In this document: piece after piece, positions 30 to 46,992 of the stretch
Layout: each line of letters opens with the position of its first letter
How positions within the stretch are numbered: the stretch's first letter is position 1
Source of the DNA: a virus
Lineage: Duplodnaviria; Heunggongvirae; Uroviricota; Caudoviricetes
Virus record (IMG/VR): IMGVR_UViG_3300026980_000004
Length of the DNA stretch: 64,000 nucleotides
Direction: 5' to 3' (one strand)
Notes under the pieces: model-generated
The model's database searches: none
What the model saw: the letters and a program-made list of their open reading frames with translations, nothing else
What the model was told of the DNA's origin: nothing
Made by a program: the position numbers and the translations under genes

Positions 30-3000
30 TTGAGTAAGAAAAGAATCATAAGAGATAGTATATTTAATGAAAACGTTGTCAATACTTCGTTTTCAAATCC
101 GAGTACATCAACAGTATATAGACTCGGTGAATTCACACTTGACACCAATCTAGATGATCGGGTTATTGGTGATTTTACCAATAAAATTTCTTCTTTCTCA
201 AAAGAATATACACTCGAAACAATTGGTATTGATACCATAATATCACAAAAAATATATGAAACTGGTAATAAGTTAAAAATTAATGTAGATTACAATAATA
301 TAAGATCGTATTCTAGATATGGTTCTGTTGAAGATTTATTTAAATATACGATTAAAAATATTGTTGAAAAATTTCCATATTCAATATATTTAACAAGTGA
401 ATTAAATACTGGTAATATTAATTCAATCACAAATTTTCAATATGATGAGATAAATAATACATCAACATTTAATATACCAGTTATTTCAATAATAAATAAA
501 GGTAATTTAATTATTGATTCTACAAACTTTGTTGAAAATGATATAAAGAATTTTAACATATCAAAAACAAAATATGTTATATGGGATTTTGAAAATCCAG
601 ATACAGAATATCCAATAATTGATTTTAGTGGTAATATTAATACCGATTCATTTATTACAATAACCGCAGCTGGTAGAGTTTTTGATTTAACAAATAGTAC
701 ATTATCTAAAAATTTTCATATTAAACCTAATAAAGATGAATATAATAGGATTATATATGAATTTAATGATATTGAAAAATATTTTTTATCTAATAAAACA
801 AACGAGGGTTTTAAATTTAAATTAAAGGTATTAAATGAAAGAGCAATAGATAGATTTAACAATAAATCAATATTATGGCCAACAACAGATGGATATAATA
901 TTGATTATGAAGATGTTATCTATAATAATTTTGTTAATGATTTAATCAAGATTGGTATTTTATATGATGAATATAAGACTGATTTAATATATAGGATGTA
1001 TTTACCACAATCAATCAAAGAATTTGATTTAACATCCGATAGTAAATTAAAAAAGCTAATTAGAACATATGGATATAATTTTGATAATATAAGAAAGTTA
1101 ATTGATGGATTTGCAACGTTAAATAATTTAACATATAAAAAAGAAGGTTCAATACCTGATATACTCGTAAAAAATCTTGCAAAGGTACTTGGATGGAATG
1201 TAAATGATATCTTAACAGAAGATGATTTAATGTCAAAAATATTTACAACAAAAACACAAGATATATCAAATAGTTTATTACCTTCCGAAATCAATATTGA
1301 ATTATGGAAAAGAATTTTAATCAATACCAAATGGTTTTTCAAATCAAAGGGTACTAGAAAATCTATTGAAACAATATTTAAATTAATTGGAATACCAGAG
1401 GATTTTATTAACTTAAATGAATATGTTTATCTTGCAGATAAGGAATTAAATGAAAATGAAAGAATAGATTCAACAAGAACAAATGTATTGGGTAATGTAG
1501 TTGTTAACGATCCTTCATATGATACTAATGGTTATCCGATTGCACCGCAAGAGAATAATCAATATTACTTTCAAGTGTCTGGAAATACAGATTCTGGACA
1601 AACATATATCAATAGATTTAGAGAAAATGGTTTTAATATAAAAACACAAGAAGATAATAAAAAATCATGGGTATATGTTGAAAATTATCATATAAGAACT
1701 GATGAGAATTCTATTTATTCAAGTAATGATTCTAGACTCGTAATCAATACAAAAGAAATTGATTTAGGTATTGATCCATCAAAAGCATTGTTGTTTGATA
1801 TTTTTAGATTCAATAAATCAAATAACTATCCAGTTTGTTCTAATGGTATATCGTTAAGTGTATTATATTTAAACGTATTATCAAACCCAGATCAGTTAAA
1901 TGTATTTGAAATACCAGATGTTCCAGATGGTGATATACAAGTTATATTAAACGGTATTGTATTGGTTGAAAATACTGATTATACCGTAACTGGTGTTGAT
2001 AATAATATAATTGAAATTACAAAGTCTGGATTTAATTATATTAATGATGTTGTAACAGTAACATATGTTGTTAATAATACAACTAATCAAGTTGATTATA
2101 ATATATTTAAACCAACAATAACATCAAACGGACAAACAATCATAACATTACCAGTTGAACCATCTGGTGATATTCAGTTGGTATTAAACGGATATACACT
2201 CGTTAATGGAAAAGACTTTTATATAAACCCAAATAATAGAACACAATTAATATTAACAAATGTTAATATATTAACAACAGATATATTGTCTGTTATGTAT
2301 ATTAATGAGTTGAGTGGTTTAAATACCATTAAATATTCGGATAATTATACAGTATCTAATTATTACAATGATAAGTTATTTTATAATAATTATAATAATA
2401 GATATGTATTTGTTAGTGATTATATAATACCAAACAGTGCAAATGTTAAGGTTATTTTAAATGGTAGAACACTTGTAAATAATTCGGATTTTACCGTTAA
2501 TCAATCAAATAAAAAACAAATAATTTTTGATAAAAAGATTAAAATAAATATTAACGATGAAATAAATGTATTTTATCTATTAAACAATTCAGAAAATCAA
2601 GATTGTATAAATTTGGGTATTGATATAAATAATATTGAATTTTTTGAGTATGTTGATAAGGTATATAAAAATTTAATTAATGTAAGAAATAGAAAGATAA
2701 TAACAAATAACAGAGGTGGGGAATATCCAACATTATCTAAAATATATGATTTATATGTAAAATATAATCAGAATAATAGAACATATAATGGGTTGTATAG
2801 TTTTGTTAAAAATTTCGATAATCACTTTATTAGTTTTGTAGACCAATTATTACCAGCAACTACAATATTAAGAAAAAGTGGATTAATTGTAAACAATTCA
2901 ATACTTTCAAAACAAAAGTATAAATTCATTAGAGGTATTAACGATGGTGCTGAATATTTATCAGAATCATTAGTATATTCTTGTGATTTATTTGGAATTA

Positions 3001-6441: not shown

Positions 6442-7200
6442 ATGGCACAACCTTCAACAGTTTTTGTTACATATTTATTAGAGAATAATACAGCTTTATC
6501 GGAAAATGTAGGATTTGGATATAAAACACCAATTCATTGTAATTATATTCAAAGAATTGAAACAGAGGATGATTATACAAATAAAACAATAATCGTTAGT
6601 TTTCCAGATACTGAAATTTTTAGATTTATGAGGGGTCCATCTGAAATTACATCATCTAATGATGGGTATGGTTGGTCTGCTGATAAGTTTTATTTATTGA
6701 TACAGATAGTTTCAGGTATCGGTGATGATGTTAGACCCTTACCAAATATGTGGAAAAAATTTGATAAAACATCATCAATAAATAATTATAGTACATGGAT
6801 TAATACAGCAATACCACCGAGTGATTTAAAAATATCAAAATTTTTTGTAACTGGGGATGAATATGATAATAATAATATTTTCTATGATTTGAGTTATTTA
6901 AATTATCCGATTTCAACAGATGACAGTAATTTACAATTTGGTGAAGAGGTTTTTTTCTTTGGTAATGTTAAAGCAAAAATTGAAGCAACAATACATTCAA
7001 TGACAATAAATACAGTATTACCATTGAATGAATTCAATACATCACAAAATCCAACATGGACAGAGGGTGATACTGTTTATGTTACAGAAGTTGGAATATA
7101 TGATGAGGATGGGACATTATTGGGTATTGGTAAATTAAATGTTCCAATAGATAAAAATAGTGATAAATATAGAACAATTGAATTTAAGTTAGATTTTTAA
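6442..7200 (+). CDS. Baseplate/tail-collar protein
   Basis: C-terminal VYVTEVGIYDEDGTLLGIGKLNVPIDK...EFKLDF resembles the tail-collar/baseplate anchor domain. Confidence 0.55.
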   Translation: MAQPSTVFVTYLLENNTALSENVGFGYKTPIHCNYIQRIETEDDYTNKTIIVSFPDTEIFRFMRGPSEITSSNDGYGWSADKFYLLIQIVSGIGDDVRPLPNMWKKFDKTSSINNYSTWINTAIPPSDLKISKFFVTGDEYDNNNIFYDLSYLNYPISTDDSNLQFGEEVFFFGNVKAKIEATIHSMTINTVLPLNEFNTSQNPTWTEGDTVYVTEVGIYDEDGTLLGIGKLNVPIDKNSDKYRTIEFKLDF

Positions 7201-42034: not shown

Positions 42035-44809
42035 ATGCCAAGATTAAAAAAGAAAATAGAATCAAATATTAAAGCAATATACCCATCATCATTAATTGCA
42101 CAAAATTTTGCCGAGGGTGATGATTCTTTTCATGGTTATGTTTTATGGGATGTTAGTGATAATAAAAATATTACACACGAAAAAAGAGAAATTAAATCCG
42201 AATATAGTTATAGAACTGTAAAAGTAAATAGATTTACAGATTTTTCGTACTTGGATTTTGAAATCGAAAACCCAACAAAATATATGAATATTAGAGTCAT
42301 TTGGAATGTATTTCCATCTGATTATAATACTGAAAATATTTCATTGGTAAATAAATATATTAAAAATACATATGGTAACACACATGTTATTACACACCCA
42401 AAAGATTTTATTGTAACAGAAGAAATCGAAATTGAAAATAAGAGTGATTTAAAACTTGAAAACATTGTTTCAAAAGATGTTCAGCAAAAGATTTTTAAAA
42501 ATTATTTAGAGGAATTAGGTTGGGGAAATGATTTTATCCAAGATATATTTAAATTGGATGATGAAATTTCAAAAAGAGTTGTTAGTGGTGATGTCGAAAA
42601 CATTATATGGAAACCAATAAAAATTCAGGGAAGAAATTTTAGATCATATGAAAATATTGATTTGGATTTTAGAAATTATATTGGTACTACTCAAATAGGT
42701 GGAAAAAATAGGGGTGGTAAATCATCTATCATTCAACTATTAATGTATGTTTTGTATGGTAAAACTATTGAGACTGAAAAAACTCAAAAAAATGGTGATA
42801 ACCGATTTATTAACAATAAACTAGATGCTGATTTTTGTAATGGATATGCTGTTATTGAAGCAAATGGTGAATATTATGGTGTTTTTAGACAAACAAATAG
42901 AAAATGGAATAGAGGTAAAACAGAAATTACTGGATCACCTAGTATTGTAAAATATTATAAATTATCATCACCAGATGAAATATATTCTGAAAATAATGAA
43001 ATATCTGAAGATAATCAAAATCTATCCGAAGAAGATAGAATAAAAACACAAAAGGTAATCAATAAAATTATTGGTGATTATGATAATTTTAACAGACTTG
43101 TTTTAACAACTGCAGACACCCTAAATAGAATTTTATCTGTAAATAAAGCTGATTTTATTGATAATCTATTGTATGATTTAGGTTTGGATATTTTCGATAA
43201 AAAACTAGATGAATTCAAACAATATAAAAATGAGTATCAAAAAAATACAGAAAAACTTGTAATCAATATCGAATCAACAGAAGAAAAAATATTAAAATAT
43301 AAGGAAGAAATTGCAGATATTGAAAATGAAATTGGTGAAATAAAAGATGTAAAAATTAAGGAACTTGAAGAATCAATATCTAAAGGAGTAGATTTTAAAA
43401 ATGATTTAATTAAAAAACTTCATAAAATAAACAAAGATATTGAGACCCTAAACCCCGATGTTATTAATCAAAATATTAATAGATTTAATGATGATTTAAC
43501 AAATAAAAAAACAAAATTAAATACAAATCTTAATAAGATTAAAACACTAAGAGATACTTATGATAAAGAAAGATTAGAAAAATTAACCAATGAAAAAGAT
43601 GATTTTAAAACATTGGTATATAAAAATAAAGATTTGATTAATGGTAAGAAAGATCAAATAAGAGAGGTACAAGATGCTAAAAGTAAATTACAAACAAAAA
43701 TATTTTTAATTGAAAAAGAAATTAAATCGTTAAAGAGTGAAAATGATAATCTTGAACATAGCAAAACTTGTCCAACATGTAATCAAACATTAAGACCAGA
43801 AGATATTGATGTTATTAAAGTTAAAATAAATAATAATAATACTCTGATTAATGAAAAACAGTTAAATATTGATCACATTAATAATAGATTGCCCGATGCA
43901 GATCGAAAAATTGATGAAATTAATAAAGAAATTAAAAAGATAAATGATGAAATCGACCAACTAAATTTAGATATGGAAAAAACACTGGAAGATATTGGTG
44001 TTTTAACCAATCATAAAAATGAGGTTGATGAACGTGATAAATTGATTCTAATCAATAATACGATTAAAACAGAAATCGAAAATACAGAATTAAAAATTGA
44101 TAATGAAAACGCTAAATTAAACGAATATAATAATTCACTTAAACAAATTGAAGAGAACAAAAAGATTAATAATAAAATTAAATTATCAGAAGAAAGATTA
44201 GCTGTTCTTAACGAAGAAAGGGATAATCAAATATTAAATATTAGTAACCATAATAATAATATTAAGAATTTAGAAAATTCTATCAAAGAATCTAAAGAGA
44301 GTATTGATAAATTTAAAAAACAAGAATATACAGATAAAATATTTAAAACTTATCAATCTTTAATACATAGAGATGGAATACCATCAAAATTACTTAAAGA
44401 ACACTCAATACCAGTTATTAATAAAACACTTGGAAAACTATTGGAAAATGTTACATTTACAGTTTGGCTGGACCCAGATGATATTACACTGAAAATGGCT
44501 GATATTAGTAAAACAGATTCAGTTATTGATTGTATTTCAGGTTCTGGAATGGAAAGAACATTTGCAGCAATCGCATTTAAGTTTTGTTTAAATGAACTCA
44601 ATATTAAATCAAGACCATCTATCATTATATTGGATGAAGTAACGGGTAAATTGGTTGACGAATCTGTTGAATTATTCTTAGATTTACTAAATGTAATTAA
44701 GAAAAAAATACAGAATATTCTAATAATCGAACATACACATGATGTACAACCAGATTATTATATTGAGGTTCAAAAAAATGAAAAAGGAATATCTAAACTA
44801 ATTAAATAA
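42035..44809 (+). CDS. sbcC: SbcD C-terminal fragment fused to SbcC/Rad50-like ATPase
   Basis: N-terminal AIYPSSLIAQNF.E...HGYVLWD (SbcD end); Walker A GKNRGGKSS, zinc hook CPTC, signature SGSGMER, Walker B IIILDE. Confidence 0.85.
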   Translation: MPRLKKKIESNIKAIYPSSLIAQNFAEGDDSFHGYVLWDVSDNKNITHEKREIKSEYSYRTVKVNRFTDFSYLDFEIENPTKYMNIRVIWNVFPSDYNTENISLVNKYIKNTYGNTHVITHPKDFIVTEEIEIENKSDLKLENIVSKDVQQKIFKNYLEELGWGNDFIQDIFKLDDEISKRVVSGDVENIIWKPIKIQGRNFRSYENIDLDFRNYIGTTQIGGKNRGGKSSIIQLLMYVLYGKTIETEKTQKNGDNRFINNKLDADFCNGYAVIEANGEYYGVFRQTNRKWNRGKTEITGSPSIVKYYKLSSPDEIYSENNEISEDNQNLSEEDRIKTQKVINKIIGDYDNFNRLVLTTADTLNRILSVNKADFIDNLLYDLGLDIFDKKLDEFKQYKNEYQKNTEKLVINIESTEEKILKYKEEIADIENEIGEIKDVKIKELEESISKGVDFKNDLIKKLHKINKDIETLNPDVINQNINRFNDDLTNKKTKLNTNLNKIKTLRDTYDKERLEKLTNEKDDFKTLVYKNKDLINGKKDQIREVQDAKSKLQTKIFLIEKEIKSLKSENDNLEHSKTCPTCNQTLRPEDIDVIKVKINNNNTLINEKQLNIDHINNRLPDADRKIDEINKEIKKINDEIDQLNLDMEKTLEDIGVLTNHKNEVDERDKLILINNTIKTEIENTELKIDNENAKLNEYNNSLKQIEENKKINNKIKLSEERLAVLNEERDNQILNISNHNNNIKNLENSIKESKESIDKFKKQEYTDKIFKTYQSLIHRDGIPSKLLKEHSIPVINKTLGKLLENVTFTVWLDPDDITLKMADISKTDSVIDCISGSGMERTFAAIAFKFCLNELNIKSRPSIIILDEVTGKLVDESVELFLDLLNVIKKKIQNILIIEHTHDVQPDYYIEVQKNEKGISKLIK

Positions 44810-44877
44810 AATTTATAAAAAATAAGAGCTAATTCATGGAAAATATATTATTGAATTTGGGTGTTAAAAGGGATGAT

Positions 44878-44939
44878 GCATAACGATGTAGCTATGCCAT
44901 CGGCTGAGGAACGAAGCTGGGGTATAGCGTGTGTTGGCT
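44878..44939 (+). repeat. attC-like site 1 (62 bp)
   Basis: GCATAAC 44878-84; arms GCTATGCC(A)TCGGCT / AGCTGGGGTATAGC; GTTGGCT 44933-39. Confidence 0.7.
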
Positions 44940-44946
44940 AAATGAA

Positions 44947-45077
44947 TGCCAACGGACGAGTATATGATTTCGGTGGCGATTGATTGCAGGACTTTTCGCA
45001 TACTGACAAACTTTCAAGACTGCACAGTGGTTTAAATTAAGCAGTATAACCCCACTGAATTATATACATTGTTATGC
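44947..45077 (+). repeat. attC-like site 2 (131 bp)
   Basis: TGCCAAC; arms 44960-76 / 45052-67 (16 bp, 2 G-T, 1 bulge); GTTATGC 45071-77. Confidence 0.75.
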
Positions 45078-45089
45078 TGCGTTAATTGT

Positions 45090-45272
45090 ATGAGTAATTT
45101 AAGACTGAATATTAGAATACTAATGTGGCATATACAGATAAGCTACAATTGGAAAATAAGTGTAACCTATAATGACTACCATAAAGGATTAAATTATGGT
45201 TGGTTTGCTGTTTATGAATATAAAAGACTATTTGAAAGAAGTAGAAATTTTGATAGGGATAATGCAGCATAA
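45090..45272 (+). CDS. Cassette gene, 60-aa hypothetical
   Basis: ATG 45090; stop TAA lies inside the GCATAAC box; flanked by GTTATGCTGC/GCAGCATAAC. Confidence 0.6.
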   Translation: MSNLRLNIRILMWHIQISYNWKISVTYNDYHKGLNYGWFAVYEYKRLFERSRNFDRDNAA

Positions 45273-45394
45273 CGGTACTCAGCTATGAATAGTGCGATTT
45301 AAAAACAAAAAATATAAAATTATGGCAAAATCAAATAAAGAATTACAGGATGAAATAGATAATAGCAGAGCATTATTTATAGCTGATGTTATGC
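45267..45394 (+). repeat. attC-like site 3 (128 bp)
   Basis: GCATAAC; arms 45279-95 / 45370-86 (17 bp, 2 G-T); GTTATGC 45388-94. Confidence 0.8.
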
Positions 45395-45537
45395 GCTGTT
45401 TGAAATCTGACCCTGATGCAAATGATGGAACTAAAAATTATAAAGAATTACCCCAATATTTGAGTGAATTAATAGATAAGGATGGGAGTTTAATGGGTGG
45501 GTTAATTATCGCAATTGAACACTATCTGGAAAAATAG
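45322..45537 (+). CDS. Cassette gene, 71-aa hypothetical starting inside the site 3 loop
   Basis: A-rich leader then ATG 45322; reads through the right arm and GTT as ..FIADV|MRC. Confidence 0.65.
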   Translation: MAKSNKELQDEIDNSRALFIADVMRCLKSDPDANDGTKNYKELPQYLSELIDKDGSLMGGLIIAIEHYLEK

Positions 45538-45538
45538 C

Positions 45539-45746
45539 GCATAACGTAGGTGGCTAAACGCTGATTTTTAACCGATTTAAAAGACGAAAACAATGAAAGA
45601 TATTAAATGTGTAAATGGATGTAAGTACTTTAATGGTGGTGAAATTAAACACCACGAAGATTGCCCACACTATCCTGAATCAATGAGTAAAATGTATGAT
45701 GACCTCAAAAGCGAGGTTAAAAATTTGCGTTTAGCTAATGTTAGGC
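45539..45746 (+). repeat. attC-like site 4 (208 bp)
   Basis: GCATAAC; arms 45551-73 / 45715-37 (23 positions, 2 G-T, 1 T-T); GTTAGGC 45740-46. Confidence 0.8.
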
Positions 45747-45844
45747 TTTCGTTGCTTAATAAGGTTCAGGAAATAGCATTTGGCGATGGTTCTGCTCAGG
45801 AGCGTATGGTAGATATAAAGGCATTATTCAGCAATGAAGTCTAA
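45593..45844 (+). CDS. Cassette gene, 83-aa hypothetical (Cys/His-rich N-terminus) starting inside the site 4 loop
   Basis: CVNGC...HHEDCPH; reads through as ..LRLANV|RLS; stop TAA inside GTCTAAC. Confidence 0.65.
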   Translation: MKDIKCVNGCKYFNGGEIKHHEDCPHYPESMSKMYDDLKSEVKNLRLANVRLSLLNKVQEIAFGDGSAQERMVDIKALFSNEV

Positions 45845-45960
45845 CGGTTTGTATATGGCACGTAGCCATTCACTAACCTAAGTAGAAGAGAAACAAATTT
45901 AATAACCGCACATAGTTTCAAAAATAGCCTAACAGCTATGTGCTATATACTTTGTTAGGC
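45839..45960 (+). repeat. attC-like site 5 (122 bp)
   Basis: GTCTAAC; arms 45851-66 / 45935-50 (16 bp, 2 G-T); GTTAGGC 45954-60. Confidence 0.8.
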
Positions 45961-45970
45961 TTAGTTGATT

Positions 45971-46192
45971 ATGGAACTTACAACAGAACAAATATTAGAG
46001 ATGAACGAAAAGCGTTTTATTTCTCATAGCACTGGAATGAAATGTGCAAAGTGTGGTAGTGATTTTAAAGTAAACAATAGGCACTTACTACCATTTGAAT
46101 TTGAGAAACTTAATGACACAATTGGTAAGGTTTGGATACCTTGTCCAAGATGCGATGAAAAGTATGATTTAGGGATATGTAGGCACAATTAA
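45971..46192 (+). CDS. Cassette gene, 73-aa zinc-ribbon protein
   Basis: CAKC...CPRC; flanked by GTTAGGCTTA/TAAGCCTAAC. Confidence 0.65.
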   Translation: MELTTEQILEMNEKRFISHSTGMKCAKCGSDFKVNNRHLLPFEFEKLNDTIGKVWIPCPRCDEKYDLGICRHN

Positions 46193-46368
46193 GCCTAACT
46201 ATTATATAGATATAATAGTTCACAACTAACTGAAAATAAAACACTTAAATCATGAAAAAGATTGATTATTACGAAATTTAAAAACAAAAATTGAAGTAAT
46301 ATGGTTATTTAAAATATTACATTAACTTTTTTCTATATTAACTATTTATATATACTAATCAAAGTATT

Positions 46369-46992
46369 ATGTCTCTAGTTAATATACAAAAAAAAGTAGG
46401 TGCAACACCTGATGATATTTTTGGTCCGAATACTGCAAATCATATTTTAAATTATTATAATTTAAATAAAATACATGGGGCGATATTTTTAGGTCAATGT
46501 TCACATGAAACAGGTAATTGGAAACATTTTGAAGAAAATTTAAATTATTCAGCAGAGAGACTTGCAAAAGTATGGCCTCATAGATATTCAGAAAATAAAG
46601 AACCAAATGAATTAGCAAAAAGATTACAAAGAAACCCAGAAATGATTGCAAATAATGTATATGCAAATAGAATGGGAAATGGTTCTGAAGAGTCTGGTGA
46701 TGGATGGAGGTATAGAGGTAGAGGTGCAATACAATTAACTGGAAAATTTAATTATAGTGAATTTTCTAGATATACAAAAGATCCTGAAATTATTGAAAAT
46801 CCAGATAAAATAATAACAGAATATATCATCGATTCTGCAATTTGGTTTTTTAATAAAAATAGATTGTGGAGTTTATGTACCGATATTAGTAATGAAACAA
46901 TAAAAAGGGTAACAAAAAAAATCAATGGTGGTTTTAATGGTCTTGATGATAGGATTGAAAAAATAAACAAATATTATAATTGGATTAAATAA
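46369..46992 (+). CDS. Endolysin, glycoside hydrolase family 19
   Basis: FLGQCSHETG, EENLNYS, GDGWRYRGRGAIQLTG..NY, VTKKINGG.NGL.DR; short N-terminal PG-binding-like segment. Confidence 0.88.
   Translation: MSLVNIQKKVGATPDDIFGPNTANHILNYYNLNKIHGAIFLGQCSHETGNWKHFEENLNYSAERLAKVWPHRYSENKEPNELAKRLQRNPEMIANNVYANRMGNGSEESGDGWRYRGRGAIQLTGKFNYSEFSRYTKDPEIIENPDKIITEYIIDSAIWFFNKNRLWSLCTDISNETIKRVTKKINGGFNGLDDRIEKINKYYNWIK

Follow-up and report, generated by a model that had tools for sequence, protein, structure and literature searches.

Integrons have been regarded as bacterial devices, defined by the tyrosine recombinase IntI with its extra domain, and the cases published from phages amount to borrowed fragments or small clusters of attC sites. 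Qi et al. (2023, PMC9892861) reported integrons from temperate phages, together with 17 CALINs (attC clusters that lack an integron integrase) from phages. Sites of the attC type are described by their R and L boxes, with R boxes pairing over 7 nt and often over 9–11 nt (PMC2727003), and almost no integrons are recorded in Bacteroidetes by IntegronFinder 2.0. A further module border, the promoter-early stem-loop (PeSL) of phages, has been likened to integrons by its own describers (PMC2839356, PMC4122927). Here, we describe an array of small genes and long hairpins at positions 44878–46281 of a 64,000-nt stretch of phage DNA (the window), which corresponds to bases 148,969–212,968 of a 265,845-bp IMG/VR virus record; positions in the whole record are marked G000, and L-numbers (L038, L054, and so on) denote the IMG/VR or metagenome loci compared with the array. 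This locus is probably an integron-like cassette array of five units, four with small open reading frames (ORFs) and one empty, which ends in a decayed attI and a recombinase-gene stub; its sites are most likely served by a Xer-like recombinase of the phage, and it would form the third such platform of this 266-kb genome.

All five hairpins of the window are bounded by AAC…GTT triplets, and two of the five carry the strict GTTRRRY form (GTTAGGC). Their L stems span 8–23 bp, with spacers of 5–6 nt on one side versus 1–4 nt on the other and loops of ~20–150 nt, a range that extends to ~280 nt across the arrays examined. The five segments that lie between or beyond the hairpins (the bodies) are each flanked by an inverted repeat of their own, which measures 6 nt for body 1, 9 nt (including a G·T) for body 4, and 10 nt for bodies 2, 3, and 5, and the stop codons of the four ORFs (45270–72, 45535–37, 45842–44, and 46190–92) fall in or abut the AAC boxes. 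This architecture lies far beyond chance. Four GTT/AAC inverted repeats of at least 9 nt were observed, versus a mean of 0.07 and a maximum of 2 in 2000 dinucleotide-preserving shuffles of the region, none of which reached four. Among 33 bodies in the arrays of the genome, cognate repeats have a median length of 10 nt versus a mean of 3.7 nt for non-cognate pairs, and none of 10,000 permutations reached the observed sum. Such repeats are informative only from 9–10 nt upwards and when they contain G or C: at 8 nt, the whole genome holds 205 GTT/AAC repeats versus ~165 in shuffles. A generic genome scan for an AAC-stem-GTT arrangement returned ~90 hits in shuffles, against an AT-rich background, and was not used as evidence. 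The box motifs themselves are rare, with 14 occurrences of GTTAKGC on the plus strand of the 265,845-bp genome (four in the window array) and 13 of GCMTAAC (five in the window array). Folding energy is weakly unusual for some hairpins (z −0.9 to −3.3), and support for the hairpins therefore derives from their shared architecture and their homology to other arrays, not from ΔG. A first-pass annotation, made from the letters of the window, had proposed the five hairpins, the box positions, the separate GTT/AAC repeat of each segment and the stops at the boxes, and these were confirmed to the base, with 0/2000 shuffles matching them; it had also allowed that shuffled sequence might do equally well, and the shuffles never gave the observed count of repeats. 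The hairpin lengths that it gave (62, 131, 128, 208, and 122 nt) equal the AAC-to-GTT intervals of 48, 117, 114, 194, and 108 nt plus two 7-nt boxes.

The right end of the array carries the relic of a recombinase platform. Directly after the last AAC stands a decayed attI-like site (46200–46251, plus strand), which opens with TATTATATA; from that AAC to the ATG of a gene stub there are 52 nt, as in the intact platform of the same genome. The stub itself (46252–46281, plus strand; ATGAAAAA…) comprises nine codons, MKKIDYYEI, and a stop, and its opening, TCATGAAAAA, sits at the 52-nt offset conserved in platforms. This right end aligns without gaps with two other platforms of the genome, and an attI profile built from the platforms of 20 other phages matches the genome in exactly three places: a second copy at G000 243.9 kb (E 7e-10), the intact platform at G000 263.8 kb (E 1e-8), and the window at 46186–46259 (E 3.2e-5), the next-best genome match having an E value of ~6. 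Beside the intact recombinase gene lies the main array, ~28 units of identical architecture on the minus strand, running from ~G000 6938 through the record ends to 263819; it stops 52 nt before the ATG of the gene, with the junction AAC|TATTATATA…ATG. Boxes of the window type also cluster at the genome ends. The window array thus appears to be the third and most degraded of three platforms in the genome; it is probably an old copy, and its cassettes could still be excisable in trans. A single genome with one live platform and two decayed ones is what these comparisons suggest, and the window relic indicates that platforms duplicate, move and decay within one phage genome.

The second copy (G000 243,811–243,959; L038 ~2310–2460, minus strand) consists of attI and ~50 nt of the recombinase gene; it is 90% identical to the intact platform over 104 nt and is preceded by a few partly decayed units, in which, for example, AAC has become AAT. 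At the attI-distal end of the main array (G000 ~6,734–7,031), a body is joined at its GTT to AT-rich, phage-like DNA with no hairpin between them. This end body is a paralogue of another main-array body, and the repeats of the two covary (GTTATGGGTA versus GTTATGTATA). Among other phages, L090–L094 (contigs of 96–430 kb) have the recombinase gene reduced to its first 19–38 codons behind an attI-like site, and decayed platforms like that of the window therefore seem common.

The genome encodes a single tyrosine recombinase (G000 262963–263766; 267 aa), which is located 69 kb from the window array and beside the ~28-unit array. The motifs of its catalytic region align to XerA, XerD, and IntI4, and its nearest solved relative is Pyrococcus abyssi XerA (4a8e). 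The protein scores below every NCBIfam cut-off: the best model, XerA_Arch, gives 177 bits (cut-off 220), the integron-integrase model TIGR02249 gives 157.6 bits (cut-off 265), and NF011946 gives 103 bits (cut-off 435). In an alignment with VchIntIA (2a3v), query residues 173–209 stand opposite residues 175–259, with ~48 residues of the IntI-specific insert region missing; in VchIntIA, this insert contacts the extrahelical bases of the site. The sub-threshold scores and the missing insert together indicate that the recombinase is Xer-like and not an IntI.

Homologues of this recombinase, 62%–81% identical, occur in 40 IMG/VR loci, several of them on contigs of 100–290 kb that also encode the capsid protein Gp23. 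In the 40 loci, the sequence …TAAC|TATWTTATATA is found ~55 nt before the ATG, and repeat-bounded units lie upstream of it only. From TAAC|TATTATATA into the gene, L082 and L081 agree at every base (100% identity), and upstream they are unrelated; this break puts the attI crossover at AAC or immediately beside it. None of the window-array ORFs recurs in the ~40 platform loci, and a single hairpin match was the only likeness in content. A pattern-based scan of 185,579 species-representative bacterial genomes, of a kind that detects close relatives only, yielded one close recombinase homologue (70% identity) on a 2-kb contig of a metagenome-assembled genome.

On the strand of the recombinase gene, the layout runs from cassettes through AAC|attI to the ATG, which is that of the bottom strand of a classical (class 1) integron. 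All window ORFs are on the plus strand and read towards the attI and the stub, and the same orientation is seen in 18 related platforms. Wobble pairs in the stems are strongly biased on this recombinase/ORF strand, with 64 G·T versus 12 A·C in the genome and 268 versus 52 in 139 hairpins from the 18 related platforms, even though stem scoring treats the two alike; the G·T wobbles stand at stereotyped positions, two per site. This excess means that the recombinase strand folds well and its complement poorly. The 5′ spacer is the longer one in 129 versus 7 of the 139 hairpins, and the base after AAC is G without exception in the main and window arrays (32 hairpins) and in 120/139 in the relatives, matching the bottom-strand R′ box of attC sites (PMC2727003). 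The layout, the wobble bias, and the G after AAC make the ORF strand the putative equivalent of the folding (bottom) strand of integrons. Classical attC sites have two or three extrahelical bases on the R″-L″ arm, which govern the choice of strand; none were found in the stems here by an ungapped search, which single bulges beyond the scored stem could escape. The R stems of all arrays share one format, GTT+7 nt+GT / AT+7 nt+AAC (for example, 45071–45084 / 45260–45273), with a conserved G·T at position 11 followed by another T-A pair, and 16/33 perfect repeats end at exactly 10 nt.

Several proposals of the first-pass annotation can be judged against this picture. Its integron-type array stands as a cassette array with an attI, and departs from the type in having no extrahelical bases and reversed ORFs. 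Its suggestion that a recombinase is encoded elsewhere in the phage is borne out by the gene at G000 262963–263766, and its statement that no integrase lies nearby overlooks the relic attI and nine-codon stub at 46200–46281. IntI, which it named as the enzyme, has to be replaced by a Xer-like recombinase lacking the IntI insert and scoring below the integron-integrase cut-offs, and its R′/R″ labels are swapped relative to attI and the recombinase gene.

At its attI-distal end, the window array opens with an orphan box, GCATAAC (44878–44884; AT+7 nt+AAC, 44873–44884, plus strand), within which the 15-codon ORF at 44837–44884 (plus strand) has its stop. No cognate GTT box was found upstream of the orphan box at 44873–44884, and the box fits the far-end remnant that would be expected after insertions at an attI. 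All subsequent parts are likewise on the plus strand. Hairpin 1 (44885–44932) has the spacer GATGTA and a stem at 44891–44898 / 44921–44928 (GCTATGCC / GGTATAGC) that carries the G·T wobble typical of the hairpin family. It is followed by body 1 (44933–44953), an empty unit in which GTTGGC (44933–44938) and GCCAAC (44948–44953) enclose a 9-nt loop and no gene; empty units of 29 and 38 nt also occur in the main array. Hairpin 2 (44954–45070) has the spacer GGACGA and an L stem at 44960–44969 / 45058–45067 with nine Watson-Crick pairs and one G·T; its loop has no ORF, and the motif AACGGACGAGTATA is common to it and one main-array hairpin. Body 2 (45071–45273), bounded by GTTATGCTGC (45071–45080) and GCAGCATAAC (45264–45273), contains ORF2 (45090–45272), whose 60-aa product belongs to no known family.

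Hairpin 3 (45274–45387; L stem 45279–45295 / 45370–45386, with 15 Watson-Crick pairs and two G·T) has homologues in the main array and in L054. The ATG of ORF3 (45322–45537; 71 aa) lies at 45322 in its loop, and body 3 (45388–45545), bounded by GTTATGCGCT (45388–45397) and AGCGCATAAC (45536–45545), encodes the C-terminal part. Hairpin 4 (45546–45739) has an L stem at 45551–45573 / 45715–45737 (20 Watson-Crick pairs, two G·T, and one mismatch), and its loop contains the start of ORF4 (ATG 45593) with a 49-aa Cys/His leader. Body 4 (45740–45845), bounded by GTTAGGCTT (45740–45748) and AAGTCTAAC (45837–45845) with one G·T, encodes the 33-aa C-terminal module of ORF4 (45593–45844; 83 aa). Hairpin 5 (45846–45953), with the spacer GGTTT and an L stem at 45851–45866 / 45935–45950 (14 Watson-Crick pairs and two G·T), is ~85% like one main-array hairpin and 75% like one in L068. 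Finally, body 5 (45954–46199), bounded by GTTAGGCTTA (45954–45963) and TAAGCCTAAC (46190–46199), holds ORF5 (45971–46192), which encodes a 73-aa zinc-ribbon-like protein of phrog_1315 (function unknown). Pfam and PHROGs searches of ORF2–5 assigned no function.

A 14-nt exact repeat, TTTAAAAACAAAAA, is present at 45297–45311 in the hairpin 3 loop, upstream of the ORF3 start, and at 46276–46290, just past the stub. Loops mostly open with TTAAWA, and a stretch rich in A lies between this motif and the ATG; these elements may be an expression signal. The array is flanked on the left by a gene for a SbcC-like ATPase (42035–44809) and on the right by one for a glycoside-hydrolase-19 endolysin (46369–46992), and GC content is 0.30–0.41 in the cassettes versus 0.20–0.25 in the flanks. 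The record has 26% GC and a terminal overlap of 97 bp; it encodes a T4-type Gp23 capsid protein, which marks the phage as T4-like, and the nearest relatives of its genes are in Flavobacteriia phages and an Aquimarina prophage. The first-pass annotation had labelled the source a Bacteroidota jumbo phage, which the T4-type capsid and these relatives make plausible, the identity of the host being a matter of deduction.

Genes in this system extend across the sites. The loops of hairpins 3 and 4 contain the start codons of ORF3 and ORF4, respectively, and both frames cross the 3′ L arm and the GTT into the next body, with ORF3 reading the GTT of body 3 as an in-frame Val. Across all arrays examined, 62/159 hairpins have an ORF starting inside, and 49/62 of these ORFs take in the GTT as a Val codon in frame. 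The clearest case is the 33-aa module of body 4, from GTTAGGCTT to AAGCCTAAC, which is 85%–95% conserved in at least 20 proteins and is joined to ~10 unrelated N-termini, the break lying exactly at the GTT codon. DNA differences among the body 4 homologues are mostly synonymous (including CGT to AGG), which indicates that the fusion proteins are under selection. Around body 4, the flanks diverge fully just 5′ of GTT and 3′ of AAC (L040, L041, L042, L045, and L046), and hairpin 4 with its Cys/His leader recurs in L046 and, before another body with its own repeat, in L052. Hairpin 3 and body 3 recur as one unit in L054, where the 10-nt repeat has changed compensatorily on both sides (…GCGTA / TACGC…); compensatory covariation of R stems is also seen among main-array paralogues. 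Hairpins and bodies thus appear to be separate modules that are exchanged precisely at both boxes. A simpler scheme, in which every gene lies within one cassette and crossover occurs only at AA|C, fits ORF3 and part of the ORF4 data and is contradicted by body 4 with its ~10 leaders; since hairpins and bodies assort independently, a single AA|C crossover cannot produce the pattern.

The 33-aa module (RLSLLNKVKEIAFGDGSAQERMVDIKALFSNEA; 45740–45845; L039–L046) occurs broadly among small proteins encoded by marine phages of the Flavobacteriia type and by an Aquimarina prophage, and in L039 and L049, it is found without any boxes, as fossil fusions. On a 32-kb phage contig (L054 4630–5900; JGI 3300041074), at least four units of the same architecture lie in the early region; the contig encodes a Rad52-type recombinase and a Sf6-type terminase, and no tyrosine recombinase was present within 5 kb.

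How such sites might work can be sketched by analogy with integrons. Each junction would be a single-strand folding site, in which the R stem forms from the cassette-specific GTT+7 nt and 7 nt+AAC and is extended by a G·T pair. An asymmetric unpaired spacer would follow, of 4–6 nt starting with G after AAC and of 1–3 nt before GTT, and then an L stem of 10–23 bp, its G·T wobbles at stereotyped positions, together with a loop that varies between sites. The 267-aa recombinase would act in trans on the folded ORF/recombinase strand, with crossover at AA|C as at attI. Classical attC sites deprived of their extrahelical bases recombine through the top strand, and the crossover moves to the other R box (Bouvier 2009, PMC2727003); by the same logic, the phage sites, having no extrahelical bases, may occasionally be used on the other strand, giving a second crossover at G|TT and allowing independent assortment of hairpins and bodies. 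The two-box exchange may plausibly result from use of both strands. It is also possible, although less likely than not, that the system acts as an in-frame shuffler of protein modules, with G|TT crossovers swapping loop-encoded N-terminal against body-encoded C-terminal domains; the idea arises from translation of the site itself, with GTT serving as a Val codon in 49/62 of the ORFs that start inside a hairpin. If true, chimeric small proteins would represent a recombinase-driven analogue of exon shuffling in phages.

A rival reading likens the hairpins to PeSLs. The phage is T4-like, and in T4-type phages, PeSLs mediate modular shuffling and form mini-circles (PMC2839356, PMC4122927); the window hairpins might likewise be terminator or promoter elements between small early genes, forming regulatory cassettes that are shuffled by general or short-homology recombination with no site-specific recombinase. 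The hairpins do form sequence families, some breakpoints fall at stem-loop borders, and these units are also present in ordinary siphovirus-like contigs whose fetched flanks contain no recombinase, one of which (L054) encodes Rad52. However, every body is flanked by a separate inverted repeat that covaries, a feature for which homologous recombination would have no need, and many junctions lie exactly at GTT or AAC between sequences without shared homology. The arrays are, moreover, tied one-sidedly to a conserved attI and recombinase gene in ~40 loci, and regulatory motifs are not concentrated here: promoter-like sites number 6 versus 10.0 ± 3.1 in shuffles under a sigma-70-type model (Bacteroidota-type promoters fall outside it), and no terminator-like sites were found at the hairpins. 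We therefore regard shuffling of this kind as an unlikely account of the array.

A role at the RNA level is harder still to make sufficient. The hairpins would then function chiefly within a polycistronic RNA, for example in termination, processing, or the coupling of translation, with GTT/AAC as long-range RNA pairing, and the strong excess of G·T (G·U) relative to A·C pairs in the strand that is transcribed, the stops in AAC boxes, the start codons in loops, and fold z-scores down to −3.3 are all in keeping with this. Against it, the hairpins match no Rfam family (one sub-threshold match was taken as chance), the link to attI and the recombinase belongs to the DNA level, as do the differences from phage to phage by whole cassettes, and the empty units and orphan boxes have no RNA rationale. 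As an explanation of the array, RNA structure is thus very improbable, and roles in RNA and in DNA could coexist. DNA inversion of the inverton or shufflon type, switching the small genes on and off, is suggested by the 9–16-nt inverted repeat bracketing each body and by the presence of a tyrosine recombinase, and can be dismissed almost outright, given that all bodies have a single orientation in every array inspected, that the repeats vary from body to body, unlike invertase sites with their common sequence, and that homologous bodies in other phages keep the same orientation next to different neighbours.

The integron-like cassette array, which we prefer, has to be weighed against observations that tell in the other direction. 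Over the 8.2 kb surrounding the array, an independent assembly of 265,825 bp shows no difference and so gives no sign of turnover, and seven contigs carry ORF4 with the same neighbours as in the window. More distant relatives add no unit-wise comparison: 31 endolysin loci at ~50% identity are not syntenic, SbcC relatives at 30%–40% identity (L035–37, G001, and G002; distant T4-like) are not syntenic and have no array after sbcC, and no ORF4 homologue was found in GenBank phages. The attI match of the window is weak (22 bits), and some breakpoints lie at stem-loop borders (L042 and L054), which a single site-specific crossover does not explain. Cassette recombination is read from sequence comparison, no product of it having been observed, and the single-strand chemistry of integrons is assumed for a recombinase without the insert and sites without extrahelical bases; the G·T wobbles on the ORF strand would suit RNA structure equally. 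Nor is there positive evidence from a related site assayed with IntI1. P12002L_attC1, predicted by HattCI only, was the only one of six sites without verified recombinants with IntI1 and attI1 (PMC9892861), a failure that fits dependence on a different enzyme.

Should the recombinase work as proposed, the definition of integron-type single-strand recombination would widen, the gathering of accessory mini-genes, possibly with anti-defence roles, in the hyperplastic regions of big phages would be explained, and a compact pair of recombinase and site would become available for engineering. A lineage of large, lytic-type phages seems to have a parallel system of its own, in which the enzyme is simpler and Xer-like, the sites have no extrahelical bases, and gene polarity is reversed. 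The first-pass annotation was aware of no account of the architecture in Bacteroidota jumbo phages and called for a literature check: clusters of attC sites in phages are already published (PMC9892861), and no description of the recombinase platform was found in the papers that our literature searches returned.

Among known systems, the Xer-dependent dif modules of Acinetobacter plasmids (PMC7399989) resemble the array in that genes are bracketed by Xer-type sites and are thought to move as modules; they are reported to use conserved double-stranded 28-bp XerC/XerD sites and host enzymes, whereas the phage repeats are unit-specific and the sites are long folded hairpins. PeSL cassettes (Arbiol 2010, PMC2839356; Comeau 2014, PMC4122927) are the nearest phage analogue working without a recombinase. 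In both, stem-loop elements between small accessory genes mark modular exchange in plastic T4-like regions; PeSLs, however, carry promoter and terminator motifs and recombine through homology, no recombinase having been found for them, whereas the phage array has covarying repeats, an attI, and a dedicated tyrosine recombinase. The closest single site is P12002L_attC1 of a Polaribacter phage (PMC9892861, Table S3), which belongs to the hairpin 4 family: AAC, a 6-nt spacer, GGCTAAACG…, …CGTTTTAGCC, ATT, and GTTAGGC. It flanks a gene bracketed by the 9-nt repeat GTTAGGCAC / GTGCCTAAC, and its host is a marine member of the Flavobacteriia; in contrast to the phage described here, P12002L is a siphovirus of 49 kb in which two sites are predicted and from which no recombinase platform was reported.

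Judged from its sequence, then, the window locus is a real integron-like feature, a variant outside the definition of the family, with a mechanism deduced by analogy and present here as a decayed satellite platform. With integrons and CALINs (PMC2727003; Cury 2016, PMC4889954), it shares AAC…GTT ends, R and L stems, an unpaired spacer, a variable loop, and R pairing over ~10 nt. As in integrons, a G follows AAC on the recombinase-sense strand, attI lies immediately next to the recombinase gene at its 5′ end, the cassette genes are small, mostly unknown, and of foreign composition, and empty cassettes occur. The phage recombinase, in contrast, lacks the IntI insert, and conserved G·T wobbles take the place of extrahelical bases. 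ORFs of the phage array read towards attI, which implies no expression of the Pc type, whereas the promoterless ORFs of classical cassettes read away from it and are expressed from Pc. Phage genes start in the loop of the site and run across the L and R boxes, exchange is apparent at both R boxes, and the whole platform is carried by large T4-like phages.

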